A DNA stretch of 64,000 nucleotides, taken from assembly GCA_965215265.1 (NCBI GenBank), contig OZ244048.1, positions 1,056,001-1,120,000 of the forward strand. Direction: 5' to 3'. The position numbers and the translations under genes were made by a program. This DNA is from Candidatus Poribacteria bacterium (GTDB lineage Bacteria > Poribacteria > WGA-4E > WGA-3G). Shown here piece after piece: positions 20,992 through 62,794 of the stretch. The notes under the pieces are model-generated. The model was not told the DNA's origin. It did no database searches and was given only the letters and a program-made list of their open reading frames with translations. Every line of letters starts with the position of its first letter. Position 1 is the first letter of the stretch.

Positions 20992-21174
20992 TTACGAGGC
21001 GATCCGTTCGGATTCCAACGCCAACCATTCTCCATAACCGCGCGGCATCTCCGCAGGCGGTTCTAATCCGGCTTCTTCGTGCCACCGGAGCAAAGGGTGC
21101 CGCCGGTCTGTTTGTGGTAGTTCGACCTGCCTACCATACGCCGCAGATTCAAAGATACCCATCATCATCTCAAT
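20992..21174 (-). pseudogene. C-terminal tail fragment of a second Gfo/Idh/MocA-like oxidoreductase
   Basis: Manual translation IEMMMGIFESAAYGRQVELPQTDRRHPLLRW...; compare LEIMLAIYES...VTMPM in 55599-56663. Confidence 0.55.
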
Positions 21175-24100
21175 TAGTGGTGACGTGCTGCCGTAGACGA
21201 AAAAAGTTCCCGACGTAGGAATTGTGCCGTATGCGAATCGTGCACGGTTGAAACCTCCTCCGGTGTACCGCTCGCGACAAGGTAACCGCCCCCTTTACTG
21301 CCCTCGGGTCCCAAGTCAAGAATCCAATCTGCCGATTTGATAACGTCCATGTTATGTTCGACGGCAATAATGGTGTTGCCTGCATCAACCAGCCGGTTGA
21401 GCACCTTGAGCAATTTCTGCACGTCGTCAAAATGCAGTCCTGTCGTGGGTTCATCCATGATATAGAGTGTCTCCGCGGCGTGTCTGCGCGAGAGCTCTTT
21501 GGCGAGTTTGATTCGCTGTGCTTCTCCGCACGAGAGCGTGGGTGCGGATTGTCCCAACTGGATATACTCCAAACCAACGTCCGCTAGCGTCTGGAGTGGA
21601 TGCTGAATCTTCTTAATATCTCTGAAGAGATGAAGTGCCTCTTGCACCGTCAATTGGAGAACCTCGGCGATGTTTTTTCCTTTGTAGCGTACGGAGAGCG
21701 TTTCAGCATTGTAACCGGTACTACCGCATGTCTCGCAGGGCACCCACACATCTGGCAAGAAGTGCATCTCAATCCGGAGGTAGCGGTGCCCATCACAGTC
21801 AGGACACTGACCATAGTTCAGATTGAAACTGAACCGACTTATATTAAACCCTCGTACTTTCGCATCCGGTAACGTTGCGAACAATTCGCGAATGTGTGTA
21901 AATACCTCGGTGTAAGTTGCTGGATTTGAGCGCGGGGTCTCGCCAATCGGTTTCCCATCCACGTTGATAAGTCGTCGAATGTTGCTTGCTCCCTTGATGC
22001 GTTGATAATTCGGCTTTTCGTCTATCTCCGTACCATCATCGCGTTTGTTTTGATGGCTCGTGTGTAAATCTCGTCGGAGCCCTTCGATATTTAGATTCAT
22101 TACATCTGATGTAATGTGCTGCGGTATACAAGAAAGTGCTGGGCGAAGCGTGCCATCGACAAGCGAACTTTTCCCAGACCCGGAAACGCCTGTCACGCAA
22201 ATTAACGTGCCAAGCGGCATCTTTACATCAATATCTTTCAGGTTGTTGGTTCGGGCACCTAACAATTCCAACCATTTTCCGTTGCCTTTCCGTCGGACCG
22301 ACGGCACCGGAATCTGCTTCGCATTGGAGAGATAGGCATGTGTTAAAGAGGTTCCTACCTTTTTTGCTCCGTTTTCAACGGTATCTGCTTTTTCGTATAT
22401 GTCAGCCCTATCAACGGTTGATGTTTTTTCGTATATTTCCGTACCATCATCGCTGATGTTTTGATGGCTTGTGTGTAAATCTCGTTCTTTCGTATCTTTC
22501 AGCCCATCAACGTCTGATGTTTTGCTATCCGTTGTACAAATCTCGCCAGAGCCATTCGAGTTTGAATCTAAACATCGGGACCCTCCGACGAGATTTGTAG
22601 TGGGTTGAACACTACAACTGCCTTTGTTGTGCAGCGATATACTAAAAGAGGTTTCTTGACTAAATGCGTGTGGTGTACCTATTGCAACAATTTCGCCGCC
22701 ATGTTCGCCTGCTCCAGGTCCGAAATCAATAATATGGTCTGCGGCTAAGATGGTGTTCCTATCGTGTTCAACAATTAGAACGTTGTTTCCGATGTCACGG
22801 AGGGACTTCATGGCCGAAATAAGCCGCTCCTGGTCTCGTGGATGCAGGCCGATGCTGGGTTCATCAAGGATGTAAGTAACGCCTGTCAACCCACTCCCGA
22901 GTTGGCTGGCGAGCCGGATACGCCGGATTTCACCTCCGGAAAGCGTGGGCGCGGGCCGATCTAACTCCAAATAGCCGAGGCCTATATCCTCAAGAAACTG
23001 GAGCCGCCTCACGGTTTGAGAGAGCAGTTCTGCCTCAAACTCAGGTGACGTGTAGCCGTGGAGGGTTGTATGTGTTGCTCTGGATGTTGCGGGACCCGTT
23101 AGCGGCTGACCTTGTTTTTCGTATATTTCCGTAGCATCACCGCTGAGGTTTTCTCTGTTTAGATTCATATTAATCTGCCTAATACGCCGGGTGAAGAAAG
23201 AAATAATCTCCGTAATTGGTAAGGCCATCAATTCAGCAATGGTTTTGTCAGAGAACATGACAACACTTGGAAAGGGTTGGAGTCGAGTTCCTTCGCAAGC
23301 AGAACAAACCTTGTGGCTACCGGCAATAGGAGAGTGTCCGCGCCCATCGCATTCAGTGCATGCGCCGATTTTGTTGTTAAAAGAGAAGTGCCGAGGCGTG
23401 AGTTGTGGAAAATTTTCACCGCACGATGTACACATCGCGTGCTCACTAAAGAAATATCGCATGGGTGGTTTGCCACGACTTGTAGAACGATTTCTTTCTT
23501 GCACTTTTTGGAAACAGATGAACCCTTCGCTTTGCAGGAGTGCCAATTCGACCGCTTCGGCGAGCCTGCTTTTTTCCTCATCCACAAGTTCCAGCCTGTC
23601 AATAACGAGGAAGATTTCGTGGTGTCTCCGTTTGTCAAGTTTCGGTGCTTCATCTAGGCGATGCATTTTGCCATTAATCAGGGCACGTACGAATCCTGCC
23701 TTTTGCAGCCGCCGGAATGCATCGATGAAATTCTCACTCCCTTTTAAGAGGCGTTCGATACGCGTGCCGCCGGCGAAATGTGTCATCGGAGCAAGCACAT
23801 CAATCCGCTGTTGATGCATGCTTTCAAAGACTGAGGTTGCAATCTGTTCTGCGGTCTGTGGTTGTACCACTTCGAGGCAATTCGGGCAATGTGGTACGCC
23901 CCAGCGTGCGTAAAGGGATCGGAGCCGATCGTGAATGTCGGTGATTGTCGCGACGGTAGAGCGTGGATTTTGGCTGGGGCTATCGTGTGAGATGGCAATA
24001 GCTGGGGAGAGCCCGTCAATGCTTTTAACCTTCGGTTTCTCCATCTGCCCGATGAATTGCCTAGCGTACGTATTGAGGGTTTCAATATAGCGACGTTGCC

Positions 24101-27100
24101 CTTCGGCATACAATGTATCCAACGCAAGCGATGTTTTGCCGGAGCCGCTGACCCCAGTAAAAGCAGTGAGTGTAAGGTGCGGGATGTCAATGTCAATCTG
24201 TTTGAGATTATTTTGTTCGGCCCCGCGTACGGTAATCATATTTTCGTCTTTTTCGTCTATCTCGGTACCGTCAATGTTTATGTTTTGATTCGGTGGACTG
24301 CCCGATTTTTCAAATTCACCACGGAGTGCTTGTCCGGTGTAAGAGTCTGGAACCTGGGCGAGTTGTTCAGGCGTACCAACAGCGACGATGGTTCCGCCGT
24401 TGGCACCTCCTTCGGGTCCCAAGTCTAGAAGATAATCAGCTGAATTAATGACTTCAAGATTGTGTTCAACAACGAGCACCGTATTGCCTGCATCAACGAG
24501 CCGGTGGAGGATGCGCAACAACTTATTGACATCATCAAAGTGCAACCCGGTGGTCGGTTCATCCAGCAGATAGAATGTTTTACCGGTGCTGCGCTTAGAA
24601 AGCTCACGGGCGAGTTTGATGCGTTGGGCTTCACCGCCGGAAAGTGTGGGTGCCGGCTGTCCCAATTTTATGTAATCTAATCCAACATCGTGGAGGAGTT
24701 GTAACGTTCTGGCAATTTTAGGAATATCAGCGAAATGGGCGAGCGCAACATCAACATCCATTTCGAGGACATCGGCGATACTTTTCTGTTTGTATTTTAC
24801 GGTGAGCGTCTCGCTATTGTATCGTCTACCTTCACATACGTCACATGCAACCCAGACATCAGCAAGTACCCCCATGTCAACCTGCTTGGCACCATTGCCT
24901 TTACATACCTCACACCTGCCTCCCGGTACGTTAAAGCTAAACCGCCCTGGTTTGTATCCACGCCATTTAGATTCCGGCAGTCCGGCGTAAAACGAACGGA
25001 TTGCATCAAACACTTTGGTGTAAGTCGCGGGATTTGAGCGGGGTGTCCGCCCGATGGGTGCCATGTCAATATTGATGATTTTGTCAATCACATCTGATAT
25101 CGGAACAGTCTTTCCGTCAATGATACCTTGGATGTCACGGTAGGCCCCCGGCACCGTCTTGGCGCGCATCAGGTCGCGGGCGAGGGCGTTATAGACAATA
25201 TCATGGACCAGCGAACTCTTTCCGGAGCCGCTGACACCTGTCACACAGCAGAATGTCCCAATAGGTATCTTCGGACTGATCGATTTCAGATTGTTTTGAC
25301 AAGCATCTCGGATATGCACCCACCGCGTCCCTGTAGTTCTGCGGGATTCGTTTTTGACAATCTGTTTATCCCCGCGCAGGTATTGTGCTGTGAGCGAATC
25401 ACTCTCTTTAAGGATTTGTGCGGGCGTTCCCATGGCTGTGATTTGTCCGCCTTGAACACCGGCCTTCGGACCGAAATCAACTATCCAATCGGCGATTAAC
25501 ATGGTGGCTTCGTCGTGTTCAACGACAATGACTGTGTTGCCCTGGTCGCGGAGTTTGCTAAGTGTTGTGAGCAGTCCTGCGTGGTCACGTGGGTGTAAAC
25601 CGATGCTAGGTTCATCAAGAACATAGATGACATCGCGTAACCCTGCGCCGACTTGGCTGGCAAGCCGGATACGTTGGGCCTCTCCGCCAGAAAGCGTGGG
25701 TGCGGAACGTGATAAAGTGAGATAGCCTAACCCGACATCCATCAGGAATTTGAGACGCCCACGAATCTCTTTTAGCAATTCGGCTGCGATAAATGCCTCA
25801 CGCTCAGGAAGTTGAAGCGTTTCAAAGAAAGGTGCGGCTTCTTCAATGGACATTTGTAGGACATCCGTAATTGCTTTGCCGTTTAGGGTTATCGTGCTAA
25901 CTCTAGGATTGAGTCTGCTACCGTTACAAGCTCGACACGGCATTTTCGCAAAAAAGTCGGGAAGGGATCCTTCTTGGATCGATGCATATTGTTCCTCATG
26001 CGCTGGGATGACACCTTGAAACCTGCCGCGATACCTTCGCCGTTTATGGCTTCCTTGTGAAGGTCTCGAAAAAGATAAGACAGTGTCACCCGTACCGTAA
26101 AGTATCGCGTGCTGTTGCTCAGGACTGAGTTCTTTCCAAGTGGTATTAATATTAAATTTGAGATGCTTGGCGAGCGTACGAAGGATGGCCAGATGCTGGG
26201 CATCTAATTTTCCCCAGAGCGTTATGGCTCCTTGTGGAATGGAGAGTGTTTCATCGGGGATAATTAAGGCTGGGGAGATGCCCATCAATGTCCCCAATCC
26301 GGTGCATTCAGGGCACATTCCTTGGGGCGTATTGAATGAGAAATGGCGTGGTTCTGGAATTTCATAACTGGCCTGACACTGGGCACAGGCGTATGCTGTA
26401 CTGAATAACTCATCTCTACCTCTTAAGTCGCTTTTTTCGTATATTTCCGTACCATCATCGCTGATGTTTTGCTGATTCGTGTGTAAATCTCGTCGCCCGC
26501 CCACCCAAATCCTCTCTCTGTTTTGATTCACATTTTCGTCTTTAGGGGGCATGATGTGAACAATGAGGTTTCCATCACCTATGTTCAAAGCGGTTTCAAC
26601 GGCTTCAGCGACACGACTCTCAATTGCAGAGGTAGTTTCTCTGTTTGCATGTTTGAGGATAAGCCTATCAACAACGATGTCAATATCGTGCCGTTGATTC
26701 GGGTTCAGGCGAAGTTCAGTTCCAATTTCATGCATCTCGCCGTCAATGCGAGCTCTCACAAATCCTGCTTTTCGAGCATCATCAAGTTCTTTGTTATGGG
26801 TACCGCGGCGTGCGCGAATGATAGGTGCCAAGATGAGGAGCCGGGTCCGGGCAGGAAAGTTGAGGATGTGTGCAGCAATATCTGCGCCGGTTTGTGAGCC
26901 GACAGGCTCACCACATTCCGGGCAGTGGAATTTTCCAACACGCGCAAATAAAACACGCAGGTAATCGTAAATTTCTGTCACGGTGGCAACCGTGGAACGC
27001 GGATTATGTGCTGTTGAACCTTGGTCAATAGCAATGGATGGAGCCAAGCCGATAATTTTGTCAACCTCTGGTTTAGCGAGCTGCCCTAAAAATTGTCGAG

Positions 27101-27380
27101 CATACGCTGATAGCGATTCTATGTACCGGCGCTGTCCTTCGGCATAAATGGTATCAATAGCTAAGGAAGATTTGCCAGAACCGCTAACCCCTGTAAAGAC
27201 AATCAACTTCCCTTTTGGAAGTTCAATATCAATATTTTGTAGATTGTGCTCTCGCGCCCCCTGTATTTTTATATATTTCCGTTTTTCGTATATTTCCGTA
27301 CCATCATCGCTGATGTTTTGATGGCTCGTGTGTAAATCTCGTCGCCCGCCCACCCAAATCCTCTCTCTGTTTTGATTCAT
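21174..27380 (-). CDS. uvrA: Excinuclease ABC subunit A, double-length (two fused UvrA units) with repeat-derived inserts
   Basis: Four GVSGSGK[ST] Walker A motifs, four LS[GC]GE signatures, zinc fingers, RSNPATYT twice. Confidence 0.95.
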   Translation of the reverse strand: MNQNRERIWVGGRRDLHTSHQNISDDGTEIYEKRKYIKIQGAREHNLQNIDIELPKGKLIVFTGVSGSGKSSLAIDTIYAEGQRRYIESLSAYARQFLGQLAKPEVDKIIGLAPSIAIDQGSTAHNPRSTVATVTEIYDYLRVLFARVGKFHCPECGEPVGSQTGADIAAHILNFPARTRLLILAPIIRARRGTHNKELDDARKAGFVRARIDGEMHEIGTELRLNPNQRHDIDIVVDRLILKHANRETTSAIESRVAEAVETALNIGDGNLIVHIMPPKDENVNQNRERIWVGGRRDLHTNQQNISDDGTEIYEKSDLRGRDELFSTAYACAQCQASYEIPEPRHFSFNTPQGMCPECTGLGTLMGISPALIIPDETLSIPQGAITLWGKLDAQHLAILRTLAKHLKFNINTTWKELSPEQQHAILYGTGDTVLSFSRPSQGSHKRRRYRGRFQGVIPAHEEQYASIQEGSLPDFFAKMPCRACNGSRLNPRVSTITLNGKAITDVLQMSIEEAAPFFETLQLPEREAFIAAELLKEIRGRLKFLMDVGLGYLTLSRSAPTLSGGEAQRIRLASQVGAGLRDVIYVLDEPSIGLHPRDHAGLLTTLSKLRDQGNTVIVVEHDEATMLIADWIVDFGPKAGVQGGQITAMGTPAQILKESDSLTAQYLRGDKQIVKNESRRTTGTRWVHIRDACQNNLKSISPKIPIGTFCCVTGVSGSGKSSLVHDIVYNALARDLMRAKTVPGAYRDIQGIIDGKTVPISDVIDKIINIDMAPIGRTPRSNPATYTKVFDAIRSFYAGLPESKWRGYKPGRFSFNVPGGRCEVCKGNGAKQVDMGVLADVWVACDVCEGRRYNSETLTVKYKQKSIADVLEMDVDVALAHFADIPKIARTLQLLHDVGLDYIKLGQPAPTLSGGEAQRIKLARELSKRSTGKTFYLLDEPTTGLHFDDVNKLLRILHRLVDAGNTVLVVEHNLEVINSADYLLDLGPEGGANGGTIVAVGTPEQLAQVPDSYTGQALRGEFEKSGSPPNQNINIDGTEIDEKDENMITVRGAEQNNLKQIDIDIPHLTLTAFTGVSGSGKTSLALDTLYAEGQRRYIETLNTYARQFIGQMEKPKVKSIDGLSPAIAISHDSPSQNPRSTVATITDIHDRLRSLYARWGVPHCPNCLEVVQPQTAEQIATSVFESMHQQRIDVLAPMTHFAGGTRIERLLKGSENFIDAFRRLQKAGFVRALINGKMHRLDEAPKLDKRRHHEIFLVIDRLELVDEEKSRLAEAVELALLQSEGFICFQKVQERNRSTSRGKPPMRYFFSEHAMCTSCGENFPQLTPRHFSFNNKIGACTECDGRGHSPIAGSHKVCSACEGTRLQPFPSVVMFSDKTIAELMALPITEIISFFTRRIRQINMNLNRENLSGDATEIYEKQGQPLTGPATSRATHTTLHGYTSPEFEAELLSQTVRRLQFLEDIGLGYLELDRPAPTLSGGEIRRIRLASQLGSGLTGVTYILDEPSIGLHPRDQERLISAMKSLRDIGNNVLIVEHDRNTILAADHIIDFGPGAGEHGGEIVAIGTPHAFSQETSFSISLHNKGSCSVQPTTNLVGGSRCLDSNSNGSGEICTTDSKTSDVDGLKDTKERDLHTSHQNISDDGTEIYEKTSTVDRADIYEKADTVENGAKKVGTSLTHAYLSNAKQIPVPSVRRKGNGKWLELLGARTNNLKDIDVKMPLGTLICVTGVSGSGKSSLVDGTLRPALSCIPQHITSDVMNLNIEGLRRDLHTSHQNKRDDGTEIDEKPNYQRIKGASNIRRLINVDGKPIGETPRSNPATYTEVFTHIRELFATLPDAKVRGFNISRFSFNLNYGQCPDCDGHRYLRIEMHFLPDVWVPCETCGSTGYNAETLSVRYKGKNIAEVLQLTVQEALHLFRDIKKIQHPLQTLADVGLEYIQLGQSAPTLSCGEAQRIKLAKELSRRHAAETLYIMDEPTTGLHFDDVQKLLKVLNRLVDAGNTIIAVEHNMDVIKSADWILDLGPEGSKGGGYLVASGTPEEVSTVHDSHTAQFLRRELFSSTAARHH

Positions 27381-27602: not shown

Positions 27603-28511
27603 ATCTTTGAGTTTACGCGGATCTTTTCGCCAATCGGCTTTGACAGTGACATAAAGTTGCAAAAAAACATGGGTATCCAAAAATTTTTCAATATCGGACC
27701 GGGCGAGTTCCCCGACACGTTTAATCACCCTGCCGGCTTTTCCGATGATAATTTGCTTTTGCGTCTGTCGTTCGACATAGACAATAGCCCGGATATACAC
27801 AGTTGCATTCTCGCGCCTGGTGCATTGCTCAACAACAACAGCTGTCGCGTATGGAACTTCTCGCTGCGTGAGCAGCATAATTTTTTCTCGTACGGTCTCA
27901 GCGATGAAAAAACGTTCTGGTAAATCGCTGAGGTGTTCTTCTGGAAAATAGCGTGGCCCCGGCGGTAGTTGAATATGTACGTGCTCAAGGAGGCGAGGGA
28001 TACCGTCACCCGTACGCGCGGAAATGGGTATCATTTCCTTGAATGCAAATTTCTTGGCGTAACTTGCTATGATCGGGAGCAACGTCTCTTTTGAAATTAA
28101 ATCGACTTTGTTCATGGCCAAAATTGCAGGGTGCTTCGCGCTGCGTAGACGTGCTAACATCTGCTCTTCATCGGCAGCTTCTGGTCGGGCAACATCAATT
28201 ACGCAAAGGACTACATCGGCACCTGCTAAAGCACTATAAGCGGTTTTTACCATTTCACTTTGCAACCGGTAAGTTGGATGCATCAGCCCGGGGGTATCAA
28301 CAAAAATGATTTGGTAGGATTCTGTTGTAACAATTCCGCGTATCTGGTTCCGAGTTGTCTGCGGTTTTGGGGTGACAATCGCCAGTTTCTGCCCTAATAG
28401 CGCATTGAGGAGTGTTGATTTACCGACATTAGGTGCCCCGATGATGCTGACATAGCCGGATCTGAATTCTTTCGTATATTTAAGCACGTTACCACCTGAT
28501 GTTTTTAGCAT
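27579..28511 (-). CDS. era: GTPase Era
   Basis: GAPNVGKSTL, KPQTTR, DTPG, NKVD, KH domain IIIGKAG. Confidence 0.96.
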   Translation of the reverse strand: MLKTSGGNVLKYTKEFRSGYVSIIGAPNVGKSTLLNALLGQKLAIVTPKPQTTRNQIRGIVTTESYQIIFVDTPGLMHPTYRLQSEMVKTAYSALAGADVVLCVIDVARPEAADEEQMLARLRSAKHPAILAMNKVDLISKETLLPIIASYAKKFAFKEMIPISARTGDGIPRLLEHVHIQLPPGPRYFPEEHLSDLPERFFIAETVREKIMLLTQREVPYATAVVVEQCTRRENATVYIRAIVYVERQTQKQIIIGKAGRVIKRVGELARSDIEKFLDTHVFLQLYVTVKADWRKDPRKLKDFSYTGAQ

Positions 28512-28810
28512 TGCATTAATCGCCGCTTTATGCTGCGCTATGCCTAAGATATCTCCGACGATCTATAGATTGGCAGGATAAGGTAATCTTTGTCTCTCCT
28601 TTCAGGAGAGACAAGAATACCGAACCTGCCAAGATTTACACATGAGCCCTCAAAAGCATAGACGTGGACGGTACGGAGATATATAAAAAATTGTTGGGCT
28701 CCTGTAAGTGATTGAAGAATCATAACCTAGAACGGCTCAGACGAGATTTACACACGAGCTATCATTACATAGACGTTGATGGTACGGAGATATACGAAAA
28801 GACGAAAAAA
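28470..28810. repeat. Composite of family A arms with a family B hairpin inserted at 28562-28632
   Basis: Removing B restores CTCCGACGA|GATTT; 28734-28800 nearly identical to 59113-59179. Confidence 0.85.
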
Positions 28811-28812
28811 CA

Positions 28813-30765
28813 TTAGGGCCAAAATTGGTAAACCGTCGTATTTGCCAAAACGCTGCAAATGCTCCATAAACTTCCGAAGATGTAGTCTCCAAGCGCGAGG
28901 CCCAAAAATAAGGGGACTGCGCGTCTATAGGCTTTGAGCCCACCATGGTGTAAGACCAATGCTTTGGCTACCCAGGCGACAAAGAGGCAGCTCCAGAGAT
29001 TGTACATACCCCAACTGTTCGCCATGGCGTACCCGAGGGGATGCAGTGGCCACCATAAAAACCGGGTGCGTAGCAACATAAGTCCCATTGCAAATGCACT
29101 GCCTCCGCCGATAAATGTAAGGGCCGGAATATCGGTCCCTTGTGGATAATTCAGCCAATTTTCAAGTTGACGGTAGACACCTCTGCCAAAGCCGAGTGCC
29201 CACGGGCCGTAGTAACCTGTCTCGGCACCGTGGCGGTAGTAATTCTCTAACAACAGCCAGAAGACAACAAGCGCACCAATTCCGGTAGCGATGAGAATTG
29301 CTACGGCTATGTGCCCTGGATGTATCTGTCTCCGTTCTGCGATTTTGAATGCCTCTAATTCTTGCGGCATCGGGTGTGCACGGTAGGCACGGTTAAAGAA
29401 CATGTACAGCGAAAATACTCCCTTGGTACTCGTGTTGAACCGCTGCGTTCCAAATGCCGTCACCAATAAACTGTGCGGGTCTACGCGATGTAAATCGTGA
29501 ACTAAGAACCCTAGTTCGGCACGGAGCCGCGCAATCATGATTGCAAGCAGGAAGTAAATTCCGAAAAAGAGCGGCACCACCCACAGTGCCATGCCTGCTT
29601 TGTAAGAGAAAGCTGTCAAAAAGAGGCTCCCGCCCACGATGCCAAGGCACGCAAAATGATACGGCATCGGTTCACGTCTATCTCCGTTTTTTCTTCTAAA
29701 TCTGTCTCGGATACCCGCAATTACGTAGTTGAAATGTGCTCTGCCTATCCACGCCGCACTCCCCAGCAGGGCAAGGTACGCGCCGAAGCTCTGTGCATCT
29801 GCATAAGGAAAACCGGGCAGCTGCCGCACCCCCAAGACACTACCTGCCATGAGTTCAAACTTATATAACCAATAGAATACCCAACATGAAAAAAGCAGAT
29901 CTAGAGGTATCAGGAAACTAATCCCAATTGCAAATGGGTAAAATGAGAGGCGGACACCACCCATGGCGTTCCAAGGCCGTCCCGTAAAAAATTGATGTAT
30001 ATTTTGTCGTTTAACCGGCACATACGGCACCGCAGGATATATTGAATTGAGTAGATTCATCACGCTAATACCAGCTGCAATACCAAAACCTACCCACATC
30101 AATTTATTTTTGAAAAAACTCGCCCCCGTATCTGTCATCGCCAGCGGCAATTGGATAATTGGGTATGTCAGCCGCTCACGCTCTGTCCACTGGATTCTGA
30201 GTAAGGTGTTGATGCATAACATGACAAACATCAACACGAAGATGAAAACTGTCCACCAAACGATAGGTGTTGCCCATGCAATCAGATGGTCCCTGCGGTA
30301 AAAACTGGACTGCCCCTCATAATACCCAGATAAGACTCGGGTATCTTGGACGGTGAGCCATGTAGGTAATTCTTTCCAAAATAGTTGCTGCCATTCGTTC
30401 TCCGGTGTGGCAAACTGAAACGGATGCCCTAAGAGTGTGACGAGAATTTCCATCATATCGTGCGAACAGAGAGAAGAGACAATGCACAACATGACATAGA
30501 TAGTGAGTAACTCGGCACCGGATAGCCACAACTTTTTTGATAATTTGCCGAGTACCGCCCGTAGTACGAGCAACCAAAACAAGATAAAAATAACGTTAGA
30601 GAGCGGATGAATTAGCGTCGGATGTGTATATCGCACTACCTCCAACTGAATTATCCAGTAAACGTTAACAGGCATCAGGAGGAGTGCGATGAAAAGTGCC
30701 TTCGGTGTTAAGCCTGATTCATAAGTGCTCCTATTTTGGGTGGATCCATCCGCGTTCCTTTTCAA
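28813..30765 (-). CDS. Polytopic membrane protein, DUF6785/DUF6784-like putative peptide transporter
   Basis: ELLTIY, QWTERERLTYPIIQLP, WWPLHPLGY, KAYRRAVPLFLGLALGD. Confidence 0.7.
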   Translation of the reverse strand: MKRNADGSTQNRSTYESGLTPKALFIALLLMPVNVYWIIQLEVVRYTHPTLIHPLSNVIFILFWLLVLRAVLGKLSKKLWLSGAELLTIYVMLCIVSSLCSHDMMEILVTLLGHPFQFATPENEWQQLFWKELPTWLTVQDTRVLSGYYEGQSSFYRRDHLIAWATPIVWWTVFIFVLMFVMLCINTLLRIQWTERERLTYPIIQLPLAMTDTGASFFKNKLMWVGFGIAAGISVMNLLNSIYPAVPYVPVKRQNIHQFFTGRPWNAMGGVRLSFYPFAIGISFLIPLDLLFSCWVFYWLYKFELMAGSVLGVRQLPGFPYADAQSFGAYLALLGSAAWIGRAHFNYVIAGIRDRFRRKNGDRREPMPYHFACLGIVGGSLFLTAFSYKAGMALWVVPLFFGIYFLLAIMIARLRAELGFLVHDLHRVDPHSLLVTAFGTQRFNTSTKGVFSLYMFFNRAYRAHPMPQELEAFKIAERRQIHPGHIAVAILIATGIGALVVFWLLLENYYRHGAETGYYGPWALGFGRGVYRQLENWLNYPQGTDIPALTFIGGGSAFAMGLMLLRTRFLWWPLHPLGYAMANSWGMYNLWSCLFVAWVAKALVLHHGGLKAYRRAVPLFLGLALGDYIFGSLWSICSVLANTTVYQFWP

Positions 30766-32293
30766 TCAAAACCTCCGTTTTGAAAGGTGCACACCGCTGT
30801 TGATAATCCCGTAATGTTTCGATCGCTGTTTCTCCATGAAGCAGACTGGGTTGGTACTTTTTCTGGGGTGTTTCTGTTAAAATTGGAATCAATTCAATGA
30901 ATCTCAGCTGCCGATTAGCATAAGTAGCTTTGGGTATAACGATTTGAGCGTACTGTTTAGAATACGTATCATATATAAAATCAGCGAGACTGTAGATAAT
31001 CGGTTTGCCCTGATAAAGTTCGATGCCACCGAAGTGATGAAGTTGTTGACAGACAACCATATCGGCACCTGTATCAATGAGGGCGTGCGCAAATAGCTGC
31101 TGACGGCGAATCGCCTGTTCTCTGGCCTGATTTCTAAAGTCGCTTTTCTCAACTAGAGCGTCAGCGTGTTGTGCTTGTTGGTGCCGTTGCCGTTCTGGCG
31201 GATTCACTTGACGCCCCGTCCCACCCCAGTGTAGCAACACGATGACAAGTTTCGCTTTGTCCCGTACGTCCGTGACGGCTTCCATCATTTCGCTATAAAC
31301 CGCATCCGCAAGTAGTTCTGCCTTGTGCTGCGAGAATTCGTTTTGTCGATAATAGGCGAGTACGGCAACTTTTTGTATACTGGAACCCATCAACGCCTGA
31401 TGTGTTTCGTCTATCTCGGTACCATCATCGCGTTTGTTTTGATGACTCGTGTGTCCAGCTCGTCGGAGGTTTCTGATGTTTTGATTCATACTCCGGCGCA
31501 CCGTTTCAATATTGGATGGCACGCGTGGGACCGGTATCCATGCGGGCATCCGTGCCTCTGTGGTAGTTGTACCGGCACCAACCGGCTTGACATTATACCT
31601 TTTAAGTTCTGTGAGTGTATCTGCTAACGCTTCAAAACCGAAGTCCATACTGTGCGGGGTAGCTAAGGAGACGGCATCAAAACCTGCGTTTGCGAGTGCC
31701 CTTGCGAGTCCCAATGATGCGCGGAAGGTGTGTTCATGTCCGTACCGTGGCTCTCCTCGTTCTGAAATGCTTGTGTTGAGAAAGGCAACGGCGATATCTG
31801 CAGACTGAATCGACTCAGCGGTGCCTTTAAAAAAGATACCTGCTCCATTTATTTCTATCAGTGGTGTGAGACGGTTCCCGACAGTAATATCGCCAACAGC
31901 GAGGACGGTGAGTGTCTCAGCACCGGTGGTGCTTTGAGGCTGAAGTGCAACGTACGGCTGCTTTGGTTTCGCGTTCAAACCATCTAAGGAACCAGAGATA
32001 TCTTGGCTTGAGACGTTCAGGATGATGCACAGGCATGCGCAAATTTGGAACGCGACGAAAAATACGTTTTTGTATCTCTCCGTACCATCAACGCTTATGT
32101 CGTGAGTACTCGTGTGTAAATCTCGTCGGAGGTTATCGATGCTATGAATCATAGCATCGGAAGGCTCTGGCGAGATTTGTGCTTCGTTGTTCATTACATC
32201 TGTTGTGTTGTGCTCCTGTAGACGAAAAAACGAGATTTGTGCTTCGTTGTTCATTACATCAATCTGTGTTGTGCTCCTGTAGACGAAAATCAT
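30731..32293 (-). CDS. CapA-family (PGA_cap) metallophosphatase-fold protein; start uncertain because the N-terminus is repeat-derived
   Basis: LAVGDI, AGFDAVSLA, MDFG, LHWG, GIELYQGKPIIYSL; several metal-binding motifs degenerate. Confidence 0.75.
   Translation of the reverse strand: MIFVYRSTTQIDVMNNEAQISFFRLQEHNTTDVMNNEAQISPEPSDAMIHSIDNLRRDLHTSTHDISVDGTERYKNVFFVAFQICACLCIILNVSSQDISGSLDGLNAKPKQPYVALQPQSTTGAETLTVLAVGDITVGNRLTPLIEINGAGIFFKGTAESIQSADIAVAFLNTSISERGEPRYGHEHTFRASLGLARALANAGFDAVSLATPHSMDFGFEALADTLTELKRYNVKPVGAGTTTTEARMPAWIPVPRVPSNIETVRRSMNQNIRNLRRAGHTSHQNKRDDGTEIDETHQALMGSSIQKVAVLAYYRQNEFSQHKAELLADAVYSEMMEAVTDVRDKAKLVIVLLHWGGTGRQVNPPERQRHQQAQHADALVEKSDFRNQAREQAIRRQQLFAHALIDTGADMVVCQQLHHFGGIELYQGKPIIYSLADFIYDTYSKQYAQIVIPKATYANRQLRFIELIPILTETPQKKYQPSLLHGETAIETLRDYQQRCAPFKTEVLIEKERGWIHPK
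32067..32289. repeat. Family A element with tandemly duplicated right arm, overlapping the CapA 5' end
   Basis: AGATTTGTGCTTCGTTGTTCATTACATC...CTCCTGTAGACGAAAA occurs twice. Confidence 0.85.
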
Positions 32294-32296
32294 CGC

Positions 32297-32908
32297 TTAT
32301 TCCTGATTGTTCAAAATATCATCCAGGTTCACGTCCACGGCATCGTCGAATTCAGGGAACGGCTTCTCTTCTTTGAGGGTTGTTCCGAGAGCAATCAGTG
32401 CATCCGCAAGGACGAGTCTATCAACTTTAGCAATGTCAAGCGTCTCATTTTCAGATGTCAAATCCGCACGCAGGGTCTGATGGTTGCGATGCGTTTGGTC
32501 TTTCAGCTGCTGAATTTCCTGCCTAAGTTCCTCAATTTGCCTTTGGAATTCGCGCGCGGACTCATTAATAAGCGTTGACATTTTCTGCAAGTCTTCCTCG
32601 CCTGAACCTAACATACCGTTAAGACGCTCATCAATTCGTTCATCAATTCGCGCGTTGATGTCGTGAGGAACCTGCCCAATTTCCGCCTTGAGTGCATTAA
32701 TGTCCTCAGGGTACTGCTTCTCAAGAGCTATCAATTTCTGCTCCATGCGGTACTGCCAGTCTTCGGTGTCCCGACTGAGCGTGCGTAACCGTTTGTTGAA
32801 GTTACGGATGTAACTTCCGAGGATACTCTCGCGAAGATAGTCTTCATGCGGCTGTGACTTCGATGCTTCCGGTTCGGCGTTAACCGTATTTTCCATCGTT
32901 TTTTTCAT
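32297..32908 (-). CDS. Coiled-coil hypothetical protein
   Basis: LRESILG...heptad-rich...AKVDRLVLADAL. Confidence 0.65.
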   Translation of the reverse strand: MKKTMENTVNAEPEASKSQPHEDYLRESILGSYIRNFNKRLRTLSRDTEDWQYRMEQKLIALEKQYPEDINALKAEIGQVPHDINARIDERIDERLNGMLGSGEEDLQKMSTLINESAREFQRQIEELRQEIQQLKDQTHRNHQTLRADLTSENETLDIAKVDRLVLADALIALGTTLKEEKPFPEFDDAVDVNLDDILNNQE

Positions 32909-33134
32909 TTTTCGTATATCTCCGTACCATCAACATTTATGTGTTGATGATTGGTTTGTAAACCTCGTGGCAGGTTCGGTATTCTTTGTCTGTCCATGAG
33001 ACAAGATAACCTTATACCTGCCATCTATAGATCGGAGGTTATCTATGTTTAGAGTCTATACATAAACGGCTCTGACGAAATTTGTAAAGGACTTAACATT
33101 ACAACCGCCTCTGTTGTGCTGCAGTAGACGAAAA
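32909..33134. repeat. Family A element with family B inserted at 32968-33031
   Basis: Removing B restores AAACCTCG|TCGGAGG. Confidence 0.85.
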
Positions 33135-33160
33135 GATTTGCATGACATTAATTACATGAC

Positions 33161-34099
33161 TTATGGATAATTATAGAGATTTTCGGTATTGTCTGGTGAT
33201 GCAGGTTCCGTTTCCATTTTGCGAGGGTGTGGTTCGCTGTTCGCCCGGAATTCGCGCAGGATACACCTGATAATTTCCTCAGAGTAGGCGTGCGCCTCTA
33301 ACTTTCCTTGATGCGCCTCCCACGCCATTCTGGCAGCGGCTTCAAAGTACTCAGCATGTTTGTAAGCATCCAATACATCGTTACCACGGGAAAAGGTACC
33401 ATGCCCGACCCAATAGAGGATATGCCGGGGTGCATCTGGCGCGTTCTCAAATAGCCGCAGGCTTTCGTAAGACAATTCCGGAATACCGGGGGCGCGCTCT
33501 TGCACGAATCCGATTCCGCCAGAATCGTCATAGATGATAGGCGTTTCCGGTTCATAGCCCCTAAGAAAACTATAGAAGCGGTCAGGGTGCCCGTATTCCG
33601 TTCGGGAAATGAGATTTAAAAACTTTGGCTGCAGGTGGACAAGCGCGGTGAAACCTTGCACTGCTAATCGTTCAAAAATGAGCAGGTAGTGAAACATCTC
33701 ACTCGTCGGTTTAGGCGCAGGTATCTTGTTTTTATTTTCTTGCAACTGCAACGTGGATGCCGCCGGGCTACCGAAGCGGATGCGATAAAACGTCCCGTCC
33801 GATTCCACCTCAATGATGGCAAGATTCAATGCTGGATGTTCACACGCAATCATATCTAGACGTGCACCGGACTTCGTCAGTAGGATATGTCTTCCGGCTA
33901 ACCCCTTTACCATAATCTGAGATGGAAGTGGATAGCGCGGTGAAGCATCATAAGGAAGGAGAGAGCCTTCATCGACGCGCTCTGCCAGCAGGACACCCAT
34001 ATTGCCTGCTGTTGCCCACAGATAGTCGTGCACGTGCGCGTGCACGCCTACCCAACCCATCTGTCCGATAAGCATACCACATTCGCCATCCGGCGACAA
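33161..34099 (-). CDS. Class II aldolase, rhamnulose-1-phosphate aldolase-like
   Basis: AGNMG, PTSE..H, LVHLQP, WVGHGTF; start uncertain. Confidence 0.7.
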   Translation of the reverse strand: MSPDGECGMLIGQMGWVGVHAHVHDYLWATAGNMGVLLAERVDEGSLLPYDASPRYPLPSQIMVKGLAGRHILLTKSGARLDMIACEHPALNLAIIEVESDGTFYRIRFGSPAASTLQLQENKNKIPAPKPTSEMFHYLLIFERLAVQGFTALVHLQPKFLNLISRTEYGHPDRFYSFLRGYEPETPIIYDDSGGIGFVQERAPGIPELSYESLRLFENAPDAPRHILYWVGHGTFSRGNDVLDAYKHAEYFEAAARMAWEAHQGKLEAHAYSEEIIRCILREFRANSEPHPRKMETEPASPDNTENLYNYP

Positions 34100-34252
34100 C
34101 GGACGTAGCCCTGAGTGATAACCTCGCAGACACCATCGTTCGTAACGATAACTCTGCGGAGACGGTATTGTCCCGGCATTGGTTAAATACGGATTGGTTA
34201 GTATTTTTCTCCCCCTCCTCCACTTTGCTATAACTGTGCAGATTAACAGTTT

Positions 34253-34477
34253 TTTGTTTACTGCAGCACAACAAATGCCGCTGCTTTTTCGTATATTTCA
34301 GCCCGATAACGCTCTATGTTGTGTCAATGACTGTGTAAATCTTGTCGGAGATTTTCTAGGTTTTGACGGTTTAGACTAAAAGCTTCAAATGAGTTACCAG
34401 AAGATAAAGCGGTTCTGGCGAAATTTGTATAAGCGTTATCAAAGCAGCAGCCTTCATGGTACTTCAATGGACAAAAA
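34253..34477. repeat. Diverged family A element
   Basis: TTTTCGTATATTTCAGCCC...TGTGTAAATCTTGTCGGAG...GCAGCAGCCTT...GGACAAAAA. Confidence 0.7.
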
Positions 34478-34674
34478 GTTGAACCGTCTAGAAATTTCTG
34501 GTGCAACTTAACGCTACATTAACTATACCATGTTTGAAAAAAAATAGCAAATTTTAAATGTGTTGTTTCATCGACTCGTCTTGAAATATTGCGATGTATA
34601 TGATAAACTTTTTCTTATGAAAAGTAGAATCTCGCTCGTAACTCTTCAATGAGAAAGGTATCACTAACTACGTT

Positions 34675-36090
34675 ATGAAAAACATGAGAACCGAAACAGA
34701 TAGTATGGGAATGCTCTCTGTCCCAGCTGACCGGTATTGGGGGGCGCAAACACAGCGTGCCCTTCAGAATTTTAACATTGGCTCTGAGCGGCTGCCTCGT
34801 CCAGCACTCTGGGCACTTGGAATCATCAAGCAAGCCGTCGCTCACGTGAATGCCGAATTAGGGCTGCTTGAACCACAGCTCGCAGACAAAATTAGCAAAG
34901 CCGCACAGGAAGTCATTGATGGCAAGTTGGATGAGCATTTTCCGCTGCCTGTCTGGCAAACAGGCAGCGGCACGCAGTCAAATATGAATGTCAATGAGGT
35001 CATCGCCAATCGCGCCATTGAATTGCTCGGTGGGAAGTTAGGAAGTAAACACCCTATTCACCCAAACGACCATGTCAATAAGTCACAATCAACCAACGAT
35101 GTATTTCCGACAGCAATCCATCTAGCAATCTTGCGTGAGATTCAGGAGCATCTCATCCCGCGGCTACAGCAGCTACGAGAGGCGTTTGCAGAAAAGGCAA
35201 CAGCGTTCGCTGACATTGTCAAAATTGGACGAACGCATCTGATGGATGCCACGCCCTTGACGCTCGGACAAGAATTTAGTGGATATGCACACCAACTCAC
35301 TGCTGCAGAGGAGCGGCTTGTTGGGACACTTCCACATCTCTATGAGCTTCCTATTGGAGGAACGGCTGTCGGGACAGGGTTAAACACGCATCTGGATTAT
35401 ACGGTGAACGTTGTGGAAAGATTGGCAAAGACAACCGGATATCCACTCAAACGTGCGCGTAATTCGTTTGAGGCACTCGGGGGGAGAGATGCAGTGATGA
35501 ATGCGAGCGCTGTTTTGAAAACAGTCGCTACAGCACTCTTTAAGCTCGCAAATGACATCCGGTGGCTTGCCTCAGGGCCGCGGTGTGGACTCGGAGAATT
35601 GGAACTTCCTCCGAATGAGCCGGGGAGCTCCATTATGCCTGGGAAGGTGAATCCGACACAGTGTGAGGCACTGACGATGGTTTGTGCGAAAGTCATCGGG
35701 AACGATACAACGATGACTCTGGCGAATGCTAGCGGTGCGTTACAGCTCAACGTCTTCATGCCGCTCATGGCCTATACGGCTTTGCAATCCATTCAACTGT
35801 TAGGCGACGCGTGTGAGTCTTTCCGTAAAAACTGTGTCGTTGGCATTGTTCCTAACCGAGAACGGATTGCAGAACACCTGGCACAGTCACTCATGCTAGT
35901 CACCGCACTTACACCGCATATTGGCTACGATCGTGCAGCCAAAGTGGCACAGACCGCGCACGAACGGGGTTGTACCCTCCGCGAAGCCGCTGTCTCTTTA
36001 GGCGTGTTAACGGAGGTGGAATTCGACCAACGTGTAGTTCCTGTAGAGATGACGCAGCCCAATATCGGCCGGACAGAACCACCGGGTTGA
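34675..36090 (+). CDS. fumC: Fumarate hydratase class II
   Basis: YWGAQT, WQTGSGTQSNMN, GRTHLMDATP, GSSIMPGKVNP. Confidence 0.96.
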   Translation: MKNMRTETDSMGMLSVPADRYWGAQTQRALQNFNIGSERLPRPALWALGIIKQAVAHVNAELGLLEPQLADKISKAAQEVIDGKLDEHFPLPVWQTGSGTQSNMNVNEVIANRAIELLGGKLGSKHPIHPNDHVNKSQSTNDVFPTAIHLAILREIQEHLIPRLQQLREAFAEKATAFADIVKIGRTHLMDATPLTLGQEFSGYAHQLTAAEERLVGTLPHLYELPIGGTAVGTGLNTHLDYTVNVVERLAKTTGYPLKRARNSFEALGGRDAVMNASAVLKTVATALFKLANDIRWLASGPRCGLGELELPPNEPGSSIMPGKVNPTQCEALTMVCAKVIGNDTTMTLANASGALQLNVFMPLMAYTALQSIQLLGDACESFRKNCVVGIVPNRERIAEHLAQSLMLVTALTPHIGYDRAAKVAQTAHERGCTLREAAVSLGVLTEVEFDQRVVPVEMTQPNIGRTEPPG

Positions 36091-36113
36091 TGGATAGGTA
36101 GCGAAGTCTGCCA

Positions 36114-36385
36114 TACCGAACCTGCCATTCTCCTTTCAGGAGAGACAAGAATACCTTTTACCTGCCACCCACTGGGATAAGATTACCTTTTACCTGCCAC
36201 CTATAGGTTCTTTGTCTGTCCTTCAGGACAGACAAGATTATCTATAGATTGGCAGGATAAGGTTGAGAGATAGGTAGTTCACGAAAAAGAGAGGTTTCGT
36301 AAACTTACCTTTTACTCGCAACCCACTGGGTGTTGATGGTACGGAGAGATATAAAAATTTGATTTTAAAAGACTATACCTAAGGA
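36114..36385. repeat. Nested cluster of B-type hairpins and A fragments between convergent fumC and rpoC
   Basis: Multiple CCTGCCA ends followed by CCCACTGGG or CCTATAGG; TCTATAGATTGGCAGG; GTTGATGGTACGGAGAGATATAAAAA. Confidence 0.8.
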
Positions 36386-42105: not shown

Positions 42106-42655
42106 TTTTATATATCTCCGTACCATCAAAGGTTATGTTGTGTGAAATCCGATGTAGATCTCGTCGGAGCCACTCTAGGTATAGCCTTTAAAATCATAAC
42201 ATCAAACGGCTCAGACGAGATTTGTAAAGTTATTAATATAGCAGCAGCCTTGTTACGGGCTCCTGTAGACAAAAGATCTCCGTACCATCAAAGGTTATGT
42301 TGTGTGAAATCCGATGTAAATCTCGTCGGAGCCACTCTAGGTATAGCCTTTAAAATCATAACATCAAACGGCTCAGATGAGATTTGTAAAGTTATTAATA
42401 TAGCAGTGGCAGGATAGGTATTCTTTTTCACTCCTGCAAGGAGTGAAAAAGAATACCTATCCCTCAACCTTTTACTCGCCACCCATTGGGATAACCTTAT
42501 ACCTGCCATCTATAGATCGGAGGTTAACTAGGTATAGTCTTTAAAATCTAAACATAAACGGCTCAGACGAGATTTTCACAGGTTTTTATATAGCAGCAGC
42601 TTTTATTGGGCTCCTGTAGACAAAAGACCTTTATTGGGCTGAAATATACGAAAAA
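42105..42655. repeat. Tandem family A copies plus a B-type insert filling the rpoB-rpoC spacer
   Basis: ~42115-42245 repeated almost exactly at ~42276-42406; B-type block 42407-42516; partial third A. Confidence 0.9.
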
Positions 42656-47280: not shown

Positions 47281-47288
47281 CGATTTGT

Positions 47289-47734
47289 CTTTCGTCTACT
47301 GCAGCCCGTTAAAGGCTGTCTATAGATTGGCAGGATAAGGTAATCTTATCTCTCCTTGCAGGAGAGATAAAGAATACCGAACCTGCCAACTGCAATGTTA
47401 AATCCTTTACAAATCTCGTCAGAGGTTTTCTATGCTATGCTTCTAAACAGAGATAACCTCCGATCTATAGATGGCAGATAAAAGATAGTAAAGCGTGTCC
47501 TGAAGGATACGACTTTCTACCTATCCTGCCACTGTCCTAGAGGAGAGATAAAGAGTCCGAAGTTGAGGGTAAAAGGTAAGTTTACGAAACCTTGCAGGTG
47601 GGGAAGTTCTCCCTGCAAGCGGGGATGAATCCCCATCGCAAACTACCTATCCCTCAACCTATCCTGCCACTGGCGCGATTTGTAGCGATTTTAGAAAAAC
47701 ATAAGGCGTTGATGTGCTGAAATATACGAAAAAA
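47289..47734. repeat. Family A element carrying several nested B-type and C inserts, in the rpoB leader
   Basis: B at 47319-47389 splits AAGGCTG|CTGCAATG (intact at 62539-62553); second insert after CTCCGA at 47464. Confidence 0.85.
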
Positions 47735-47800
47735 CGAGAATATGGAAATTTTCAATGTAACTTTAGCAATTATCACTTTACAATGACTGCATAACATAAT

Positions 47801-56668: not shown

Positions 56669-56739
56669 TTGGCAGGTTCGGTATTCTTTGTCTCTCCTAC
56701 AAGGAGAGACAAGATTCCCTTATCCTGCCAATCTATAGA
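56669..56739. repeat. Stand-alone family B hairpin element
   Basis: TTGGCAGG...TTGTCTCTCCT-ACA-AGGAGAGACAA...CCTGCCAA-TCTATAGA. Confidence 0.85.
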
Positions 56740-58822: not shown

Positions 58823-59179
58823 TTTTTCGTCAACGGTATACAATATGTGCTTTATACGAAAAAAAAAAGACTATACCTAAGTAATCTCCGATCTATAGAT
58901 AAAAGGTAATCTTGTCTCTCCTGAAGGACAGACAAAGAAGGATTCGGGTGGGCGGGAGCCATACAGAACCTGCCAAGATTTTCACAGTAATTGACACAAC
59001 ATAAGGCGTTATCGGGCTAAAATATACGAAAAAATATGAATCTCGCCTGACCTTACCGGAGATGGGTACAGAATGTTTAAGGAGGGTTATATTTAGAGTC
59101 AATACATCGAAGGGCTCAGACGAGATTTACACACGAGCTATCATTACATAGACGTTGATGGTACGGAGATATACAAAAA
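58823..59179. repeat. Composite A elements with B and the D motif (GGATTCGGGTGGGCGGG) nested
   Basis: CTCCGA-TCTATAGAT...CCTGCCAA-GATTTTCACAG; arms ending ATATACGAAAA and ATATACAAAAA. Confidence 0.8.
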
Positions 59180-62514: not shown

Positions 62515-62794
62515 CTTTCGTCTACAGGCACCCGTAACAAGGCTGCTGCAATGTTAAAACCTGTGAAAATCTCGTCTGAGCCGTCTGGTGCTTTGATTTT
62601 TAAAGACATTACCTAAGTAGTCTCCGACGAGATTTATCTATAGATTGGCAGGTAAAAGGGAAGGGAAGTTCTCTCCGCTCACGGGGAGGAATCCCCTTTC
62701 TTGTCTCTCCTTGCAGGAGAGACAAAGAATACCTATCCTGCCAACACACGAGTATTCATGACATAAGCGTTGACGGTACGGAGATATACAAAAA
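62515..62794. repeat. Family A element containing B (62637-62744), which contains C (~62663-62696)
   Basis: Removing B restores GAGATTTA|CACACGAG. Confidence 0.88.

Follow-up and report, generated by a model that had tools for sequence, protein, structure and literature searches.

Copies of Family B in the Window

The window analyzed here is a stretch of 64,000 nt from the genome of a sponge-symbiont Candidatus Poribacteria bacterium. This genome is closed, 4.83 Mb in length and 48% in GC content. The window contains copies and remnants of a short hairpin repeat family, designated B, and units of another repeat family, designated A. They are listed below; a vertical bar marks the point of insertion.

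28562..28632, plus strand: B1 copy; tag TCTATAGA, T, imperfect hairpin TGGCAGG..CCTGCCA, A
28728..28802, plus strand: empty A unit, core GACGAGATTTACACACGAG ... GGTACGGAGATATACGAAAA; the repeat type that B favours as host
32968..33031, minus strand: B2 copy of 64 nt, without the extra T/A pair; in the A core, CTCCGA|CGAGGTTT on the minus strand
36241..36330, plus strand: B1 5' end, tag plus TTGGCAGGATAAGG, within a rearranged nest
42407..42516, minus strand: B2 copy with a C-family hairpin nested inside (tag CCCAATGGG, stem TGGCGAG)
47319..47389, plus strand: B1 copy in another module of the A superfamily, at AAGGCTG|CTGCAATG
47464..47531, plus strand: B2 copy; stem mutated (TGGCAGA), apical module of a different type; site CTCCGA|
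56669..56739, minus strand: B1 copy in unique DNA; target A|CA
58892..58976, plus strand: degenerate B; tag followed by TAAAAGG, 3' end ..CCTGCCAA retained
62637..62744, plus strand: B1 copy, 108 nt, whose 5' arm contains an additional GC-rich module; A core, GAGATTTA|CACACGAG

The window holds 10 occurrences of the octamer TCTATAGA, far more than the 0.41 expected by chance. Nine of the ten belong to B copies or their remnants (28562, 33024, 36241, 42509, 47319, 47464, 56732, 58892 and 62637). The 16-mer composed of the tag and the stem is observed six times, against 0.36 expected.

Four of these copies (28562..28632, 32968..33031, 47319..47389 and 62637..62744) had been reported in the initial annotation, with the claim that their excision restores the A host. 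Their positions, their anatomy and the restoration of the host were all confirmed. The B1 copy at 28562..28632 lies in the A core, directly after CTCCGACGA, and the restored junction is CTCCGACGA|GATTT. Its empty paralog, at genome position 3589537, is 94.8% identical over 97 nt without any gap. The joined flanks of the B2 copy at 32968..33031 read AAACCTCG|TCGGAGG. When folded as single strands, the four copies show z scores from -4.5 to -9.1 (-9.1 for 28562..28632, -4.5 for 32968..33031, -7.9 for 47319..47389 and -6.0 for 62637..62744), and the tag is unpaired. Rfam returned no match in the window at the gathering thresholds.

The nest around 36241..36330 also holds two reverse-oriented copies, one of family C and the other (36140-36208) with a palindromic tag variant, CCTATAGG. 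The junction of 42407..42516 is chimeric, because its two flanks derive from different A half-sites. The B1 copy at 56669..56739 lies a few bases past the stop codon of the ORF 55599-56663, ahead of a small hairpin. In the degenerate copy at 58892..58976, the tag abuts TAAAAGG because the 5' stem was lost.

Gene order upstream of era was examined for an orthologous empty site of the copy at 28562, but the probable congener does not share it. The Era proteins nearest to that of this genome come exclusively from Candidatus Poribacteria assemblies, with 64-73% identity.

Architecture of Family B and Its Sister Family C

The B unit consists of the 8-nt palindromic tag TCTATAGA directly 5' of a 55-63-nt imperfect hairpin, 64-71 nt in total. 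Conservation extends to the outer stem, (T)TGGCAGG/CCTGCCA(A), and to an internal loop that is asymmetric and rich in A; the tip is modular. The tag is constantly on the side of the arm with the A-rich internal loop (ATAAGG or TAAAAGG); the opposite arm has CCGAACC or CCTATCC. As the tag is one-sided and the internal loop lies on one arm, the unit is asymmetric in two independent ways, in agreement with the asymmetric ends first described from the window copies. Two subtypes are distinguished by a single T-A pair added at the stem base, which is present in B1 and absent from B2.

Another, larger family, designated C, has the same hairpin with a different palindromic 5' tag, CCCA(G/A)TGGG (CCCAGTGGG). 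The tags of both families are 5' of the hairpin. The two arms of the outer stem covary. The stem variants are compensatory: TGGCAGG/CCTGCCA is observed 92 times, TGGCGAG/CTCGCCA 17 times, TGGCAAG/CTTGCCA five times and TGGCGGG/CCCGCCA twice. The rare tag variant seen in the window nest also keeps its palindrome, with both outer letters of the B tag altered.

Genome-wide, there are 150 octamers TCTATAGA, 60 of which abut a TGGC stem. The copies of B that could be parsed end to end, from the tag to the matching stem, number 35. For family C, about 110 5' ends were counted, and 65 copies could be parsed. The divergence between B copies is about 7-10%, so the activity of B may be old.

No long autonomous element with B ends, which the initial annotation had suggested looking for, was found. 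The 58 unmatched tag-plus-stem starts are mutated, truncated or rearranged, and none of them encloses a gene. An inverted pair of C copies 812 nt apart was considered as a carrier of the enzyme and rejected; its interior contains the ribosomal protein genes S14 and L5.

Empty Sites and the Absence of Target Duplication

For the empty-site analysis, flanks of 15 + 15 nt were joined with boundary shifts, corresponding to net offsets from -4 to +11, and searched against the genome with BLAST. Paralogous empty sites were found for 25 of the 35 B copies. In 24 of these 25 testable copies, the join is exact, with an ambiguity of at most 1 nt, and there is no target duplication. Both claims, originally based on the four window copies, hold across the genome to this extent. 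The net offsets are 0 (10 copies, B2), +1 (15 copies, B1) and +9 (one copy). The offset +1 in B1 corresponds to the trailing A, which pairs with the extra T. The exception is the B copy at genome position 1632894, with the offset +9 and a direct duplication of 8-9 nt in its flanks. For family C, empty paralogs are available for 20 of the 65 copies, and 19 of these 20 show the offset 0 and no duplication. With longer flanks of 60 + 60 nt, the best pairs of filled and empty sites are ungapped over 93-119 nt, with 94.1-99.1% identity. B and C are mobile units, and their edges are exact.

Two observations are independent of repeat paralogs. One is a serine-recombinase gene split by an 89-nt nest of C and B. 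Excision of the nest at the boundaries given by the insertion rules restores a frame of 212 aa, including the helix-turn-helix tail, and excision at four neighbouring offsets leads to an early stop each time. The other is the spacer between L24 and L5 in a ribosomal protein operon. It is 146 nt long with a 71-nt C copy in this genome, versus 80 nt without the element in a congener, G001.

Public sequence data were also inspected around the window copies. Short-read contigs (X5, X6, X8 and X9; window positions 28000-47999) end at almost every repeat. The best contig spanning a B copy, the X9 contig at 46113-47419, extends only 30 letters past the copy at 47319-47389, and none reaches 31 letters on both sides. 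The listed contig joints have short sides or extra letters and resemble paralogous repeats, as checked at 42225/42585. With the contigs broken at the repeats in this way, neither circle junctions nor polymorphisms within a population were seen. In a search of sequencing runs, 20 holders from 11 studies were found among the matches listed, none of them RNA, which suggests that several studies contain strains of this species.

Target Choice and Nesting

B and C each prefer a dinucleotide target, and the two targets differ. Among 32 distinct flanks of B, the position -1 is A in 29 and the position +1 is C in 26, which corresponds to insertion at A|C. Among 63 distinct flanks of C, the position +1 is C in 54 and the position +2 is T in 54; that is, C is inserted just before CT. 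Because the first C of the C tag creates an ambiguity of 1 nt, the cut for C is possibly C|T. No boundary shift of B moves its cut to C|T or C|A. The preferences for A|C (B) and |CT (C) hold outside family A, too.

Family A is strongly favoured by B as a host. With the A core searched as GACGAGATTT allowing at most one mismatch, 20 of the 35 restored B sites are within 25 nt of a core, whereas only 4.1% of the DNA outside ORFs, and 0.9% of the genome as a whole, is that close. The enrichment is about 14-fold. The initial annotation had proposed such an enrichment, and had held that consistent target duplications or a lack of enrichment in A would speak against its view; neither was observed. 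The orientation is the same in 19 of the 20 core-associated copies. Relative to the core, B is located at +11 (nine copies), +2 (six), +5 (three) and -2 (one). Three of these positions fall within a 12-nt stretch and are bound to the subtype: B2 is at +2, and B1 is at +5 and +11. Six of the 65 C copies are near the A core, too, five of them at the offset -2. In a looser grouping based on 24 nt, eight C copies share the site class ..CCCT|CTGGCGAGATTT. As both families cluster at the 5' edge of the A core, a short stretch there is a hot spot for B and C.

The proposal that the target of B is the structure of A DNA, and not a single fixed sequence, was not borne out. One 75-nt A unit was tested and folds like its shuffles (z = +0.14); since it does not fold significantly, the targeting of structured DNA is unsupported. 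B has the A|C preference, uses three positions in the core and is also found in other hosts. The preference of B for A looks like one for sequence context rather than structure.

The hosts of B include other hairpins and unique DNA in addition to A, and B and C are nested in each other. A C copy is inserted in B at ..AAT|CTTGTCTC, and its removal from the copy at genome position 1124039 leaves exactly the 71-nt B of 4125649. A B copy with the TGGCGGGG stem is inserted in a C arm at ..TTTA|CCTGCCA, and the empty paralog is 99.1% identical over 115 nt. These nested insertions obey the same target rules as the other copies. Both families are found in each other and in A repeats, and also in the spacers between genes and, on occasion, within genes. 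ORFs, crudely defined, occupy 87% of the genome, and 30 of the 35 B copies and 42 of the 65 C copies are wholly outside them. Three ribosomal protein operon spacers are occupied by C copies. Cumulative GC skew and gene-strand skew indicated no clear origin or terminus of replication.

Insertion or Gene Conversion

It is conceivable that B entered the A core only a few times and was then multiplied by gene conversion or by duplication of A and B together among the roughly 200-400 A paralogs, most copies at the same site having arisen without transposition. Under such a process, exact edges, fixed orientation and an apparent enrichment in A would come automatically. Three pairs of B copies with near-identical flanks (1251782/4379209, 1386243/4251784 and 2980658/2982266) are consistent with it, as is the use of only three core positions, each bound to one subtype. 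The arms and tips also appear shuffled between B and C, suggesting frequent exchange between hairpins.

Several observations point the other way. The 35 B copies are distributed in 21 site classes, including unique DNA and other hairpins, and the 65 C copies in 51. Most C copies (45 of 65) are in unique contexts without a paralogous site. Over 120 nt, the closest paralog is an empty site, not a filled one, for 25 of the 30 B sites. The target rules, A|C and |CT, are valid outside A. Gene conversion as the source of most same-site copies is therefore considered unlikely. Composite copying does exist, but with 21 B and 51 C site classes it is not the main mode of spread. Gene conversion or duplication of the A+B composite may account for part of the copies that share one position of the A core.

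Distribution across Genomes

B and C are restricted to one species. Pattern matches in this genome number 218 for A, 34 for B and 120 for C, and each of 40 relatives, including the congener, has 0-2 matches, which is the chance level. By BLAST, the 71-nt B is present in one of 176 genomes of the phylum; otherwise, there is one 31-nt match with an E-value of 7e-4. The B 16-mer yielded only single chance-level matches in genomes of other species. A gapped pattern of B did not match any metagenome contig. For the C 23-mer, the viral contigs, the other genomes and the metagenome contigs were all without a match. A photosystem reaction-centre gene was searched for and is not present in this genome.

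Search for the Enzyme

No intact candidate for the enzyme that moves B and C was found. The initial annotation had suggested HUH or IS110-type systems, and no gene of the Y1/HUH, IS110 or TnpB type was detected in this genome. PF01797 gave no match, and an HMM built from ten Poribacteria Y1 proteins, searched against the six-frame translation with --max, gave a best E-value of 1. The search for an IS91-type Y2 gene gave no match either, but the control was likewise silent. Y1 genes are present in 32 of the 40 relatives. In the congener, Y1 matches number 34, and there are 70 copies of a classical REP in which GTAG precedes a 16-nt palindrome by two bases. Five aligned IS605 copies of the congener differ in whether they carry this REP, and no flanking duplication is evident in the alignment.

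Only one nuclease family is expanded in this genome. Transposase_31 (Rpn/YhgA-like PD-(D/E)XK) has 24 matches, the highest number among 41 genomes, versus none in the congener, which also lacks A, B and C, and 0-10 in the other relatives. These genes are multi-copy, with about 90% identity. B and C could then be moved by an encoded enzyme of a non-classical kind, either these nucleases, with the tag read as a restriction-like site, or an uncharacterised protein, and this agrees with the outcome of the searches for Y1, IS110, TnpB and serine/tyrosine recombinases, which gave nothing or broken genes. The Rpn proteins studied in E. coli, by contrast, are described in PMC10400941 as toxic defence endonucleases. 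Transposase_31 is present without A, B or C in 22 of the 40 relatives, and the association comes from one genome. The repeat unit around the one Transposase_31 gene that was inspected has no B or C ends. On this evidence, movement by such an encoded enzyme is improbable.

All three recombinase genes found in this genome are broken. The sole integrase match has an internal stop. Of the two resolvase matches, one is the gene split by the C+B nest, and two stops interrupt the other. Conservative insertion of a circular hairpin by a serine or tyrosine recombinase, of the IS607 or the integron/attC kind, is very improbable. Such systems do not generate classical duplications, attC is also an imperfect hairpin, and a resolvase gene adjoins a nest of B and C; but that gene is interrupted by the nest rather than served by it, and the identity between element and target is at most 1 nt, below the shared crossover core of 2 nt or more that such an enzyme needs.

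An RNA route, in which the hairpin is transcribed, reverse-transcribed and integrated, would fit the C copies in transcribed operon spacers and the presence of a reverse transcriptase gene, but it can hardly be credited, given that this single gene is part of a diversity-generating retroelement and adjoins an Avd gene, that the orientation relative to flanking genes is unbiased (13:11 for B and 24:14 for C), and that there is no poly-A tail or other scar of retro-insertion.

Comparison with Known Systems

REP, BIME and REPIN elements, with their RAYT (TnpA-REP, Y1 HUH) enzymes, are among the closest known counterparts of B: a short conserved motif immediately precedes, on the 5' side, an imperfect palindrome whose stem has an irregularity that is conserved as well. 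REP/BIME elements share with B and C a high copy number, an intergenic location, species specificity, nested or mosaic clusters and the lack of target duplication. According to PMC8266576 and PMC3333891, TnpA-REP requires a conserved 5' tetranucleotide and a stem bulge on the folded single-stranded REP. In the same reports, the enzyme cuts at C|T (or CA) on one or the other side of the REP, and the 5' motif helps to select the cut. The C|T cut may be comparable to the C-containing junction dinucleotide here, CT after family C, whereas the cut for B is A|C, unlike that of TnpA-REP.

Other differences from REP are clear. The REP motif is GTAG, whereas the tags here are palindromes of 8-9 nt, TCTATAGA in B and CCCA(G/A)TGGG in C. 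The four tag bases nearest the stem are ATAG, followed by A, in B and GTGG, followed by G, in C; each is one letter off GTAG, a resemblance only. The REP unit is about 20-40 nt in contrast to 64-71 nt here, and REPs form doublets, whereas single tagged hairpins are observed here. REP/RAYT systems have a cognate RAYT (Y1) gene, and none was found in this genome. B and C are not assigned to REP/RAYT, as the GTAG motif and a RAYT gene are both missing.

SDR1-8 of Nostoc and relatives, reportedly described by Elhai et al. in 2008 (Genome Res 18:1484), are said to be tiny gene-less repeats that nest at fixed positions. They are also said to be associated with an octamer palindrome, to be 21-27 nt in length and to be confined to Nostocaceae, the heterocyst-forming cyanobacteria. 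No mover is known for them. The nesting of very small gene-less repeats is common to the SDRs and to B and C. They differ in size and host, 21-27 nt in Nostocaceae versus 64-71 nt in Poribacteria. The HIP1 octamer is described as an insertion site for SDR5 in PMC5861425. The octamer is thus the target in SDRs, whereas it travels with the hairpin in B.

Classical MITEs, such as Correia/NEMIS, are moved by DDE transposases; both of their ends carry terminal inverted repeats, and they generate a target duplication of fixed length. B is likewise small, gene-less, hairpin-forming and intergenic, but its tag is one-sided, and the duplication is absent in 24 of 25 B copies (19 of 20 for C). Integron attC sites are imperfect hairpins with extrahelical bases. 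B differs from attC and IS607-like systems in that no intact recombinase was found and that the identity shared by element and target does not exceed 1 nt. IS200/IS605 elements and their gene-less derivatives, PATEs, have two different subterminal hairpins and a target word of 4-5 nt. In contrast to the two hairpins and the longer word of PATEs, B has one hairpin with a tag and a 2-nt preference. PATEs need TnpA, and neither a TnpA nor a TnpB gene was found in this genome. Intact IS605 copies are abundant in the congener, and the ends of the IS elements there are unlike those of B. Insertion of IS200/IS605, as reported in PMC3333891, is single-stranded, guided by hairpins and polar, beside a short target word, and leaves no duplication.

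A narrow literature search on palindromic repeats in Poribacteria returned no description of such elements, which is no proof of novelty. Nested hairpins that insert without duplication are already known from REP/BIME systems and the SDRs of Nostoc. The new features are the one-sided palindromic tag of 8-9 nt, the clean contrast of targets between two families, the hot spot in the A core, and the finding of no Y1 gene in this genome although Y1 is common in the phylum.

Possible Mechanism of Movement

The tagged and bulged palindrome, the polar insertion, the lack of duplication and the C-containing junction match what is reported for REP and TnpA-REP, and B would therefore work like REP. B is probably a REP-type DNA hairpin that is mobile but non-autonomous. 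Both families insert with one polarity, at exact edges and without duplicating the target, B between the bases A and C and family C directly before CT. TnpA-REP (RAYT, a Y1/HUH enzyme) reads GTAG and the bulged REP and cuts at C|T. By analogy, B may move via folded single-stranded DNA, with a nuclease/ligase that acts in trans and recognises the bulged stem together with the tag on its 5' side, much as RAYT does; this part of the reading is held more tentatively than the REP-like nature of B itself.

Because no Y1 enzyme is encoded in this genome, the mover either was lost, leaving orphaned copies, or is a different enzyme that was not recognised. Orphaning after the loss of the mover would fit the divergence of 7-10% between copies. 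There is a small chance that the reader of the palindromic tag of 8-9 nt and the bulged hairpin is an unrecognised enzyme of no known transposase class, with the tag setting the dinucleotide (TCTATAGA for A|C and CCCAGTGGG for |CT). Any of the 24 Rpn-like PD-(D/E)XK nucleases, or else a protein not yet characterised, would be a candidate.

Returning to the REP-like hairpin, one hairpin with two tags and two dinucleotides fits a guide-like role of the tag, as seen in only two families. The simple complementarity scheme reported for TnpA-REP does not predict the observed pairs of tag and target.

Implications

The spread of REP-like hairpins is only partly understood, and the link to RAYT is based on a few model systems. 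The pair of B and C, with a shared hairpin and differing tags and dinucleotides, is a natural experiment on whether a 5' motif chooses the insertion site. Their abundance in a genome with no detectable Y1 gene indicates either that orphan populations of REP-like hairpins persist after the loss of their mover, or that another enzyme moves them. If an unrecognised enzyme is responsible, there would be a RAYT-independent route for the proliferation of REP-like DNA. For the host genome, B and C split genes, such as the resolvase gene here, fill spacers in the ribosomal protein operon and break short-read assemblies at each copy.

Insertions of C and B Hairpins in a Gene and in Operon Spacers

In G000, the genome holding the window, a serine-recombinase (resolvase) gene is split by an 89-nt nest of two hairpin elements: B, the family of 64-71-nt mobile hairpins with a one-sided 5' palindromic tag, and C, its sister family with the same imperfect hairpin and another tag. 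The insert separates the catalytic part from the helix-turn-helix part. In silico removal of the nest regains a 212-aa frame. This gene is the sole otherwise intact serine-recombinase gene of G000.

L196 1495-2190 (G000:C1:3344472-3345167): resolvase gene, with the 89-nt insert at L196 1981-2069

Three near-identical C copies lie in the ribosomal protein operon, one each in the S8/S14, L5/L24, and S19/L2 spacers. The L24-L5 spacer of the probable congener G001 is without the C element.

L156 2950-3020, 3832-3902, and 7459-7529 (G000:C1:3085949-3090528): C copies in ribosomal protein operon spacers

Unusual B Copies

Two copies of B are notable for their flanks.

Window 42407-42516: copy of subtype B2 (without the extra T-A pair at the stem base) with a nested C, flanked by two different half-sites of A, the repeat preferred by B as host
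G000:C1:1632826-1632894: copy of B flanked by a direct duplication, CGAGATGT(A), 8-9 nt

The B2 copy is flanked by ..ATATAGCAG on one side and TCGGAGG.. on the other. Because it joins different A half-sites, it suggests that two B copies were rearranged with each other. The second copy is the only one with a flanking direct duplication; apart from the duplication, its hairpin is nearly identical to that of the 1813158 copy.

Y1 Genes and REP Sequences in Relatives

No Y1 (IS200/IS605/RAYT) gene was found in the whole G000 genome. At least one is present in 32 of the 40 relatives (G001-G040), and G001 has 34 Y1 matches. A classical GTAG-type REP of ~24 nt is found in 70 copies genome-wide in G001. 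At two places within otherwise near-identical IS605 copies of G001 (L177-L181), some copies hold this REP and others lack it; their alignment shows no evident duplication of the flanks. A compensatory stem variant is observed among the REP copies.

Other Features and Multi-Copy Genes of G000

Window 21174-27380, reverse strand: 2068-aa ORF, UvrA-like
L168 867-2349 (G000:C1:1419462-1420944): diversity-generating retroelement (Avd and reverse transcriptase)
L157 582-3815 and L158 1455-2822: N6/N4 DNA methyltransferase units, with further copies elsewhere in G000

The 2068-aa ORF encodes a UvrA-like protein of unusual length, in which UvrA interaction and UvrA DNA-binding domains occur together with ABC ATPase domains; it also matches STAND-type NTPases weakly. 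The 30-nt word GTTTCGATTCCAAATTGGTGCGATTAAAAG occurs ~177 times genome-wide and looks like the repeat unit of a large CRISPR array. The retroelement is adjoined by a gene of the FGE-sulfatase type, and G000 carries multiple copies of FGE-sulfatase genes.

Transposase_31 (Rpn/YhgA-like PD-(D/E)XK) has 24 matches genome-wide, the highest count among all 41 genomes compared, and most are intact genes of 360-410 aa with ~90% identity. The N6/N4 DNA methyltransferase genes (~9-17 copies at ≥85% identity) form pairs with an ORF of 158 aa that belongs to no known family, and cores of A lie near the ends of these units.
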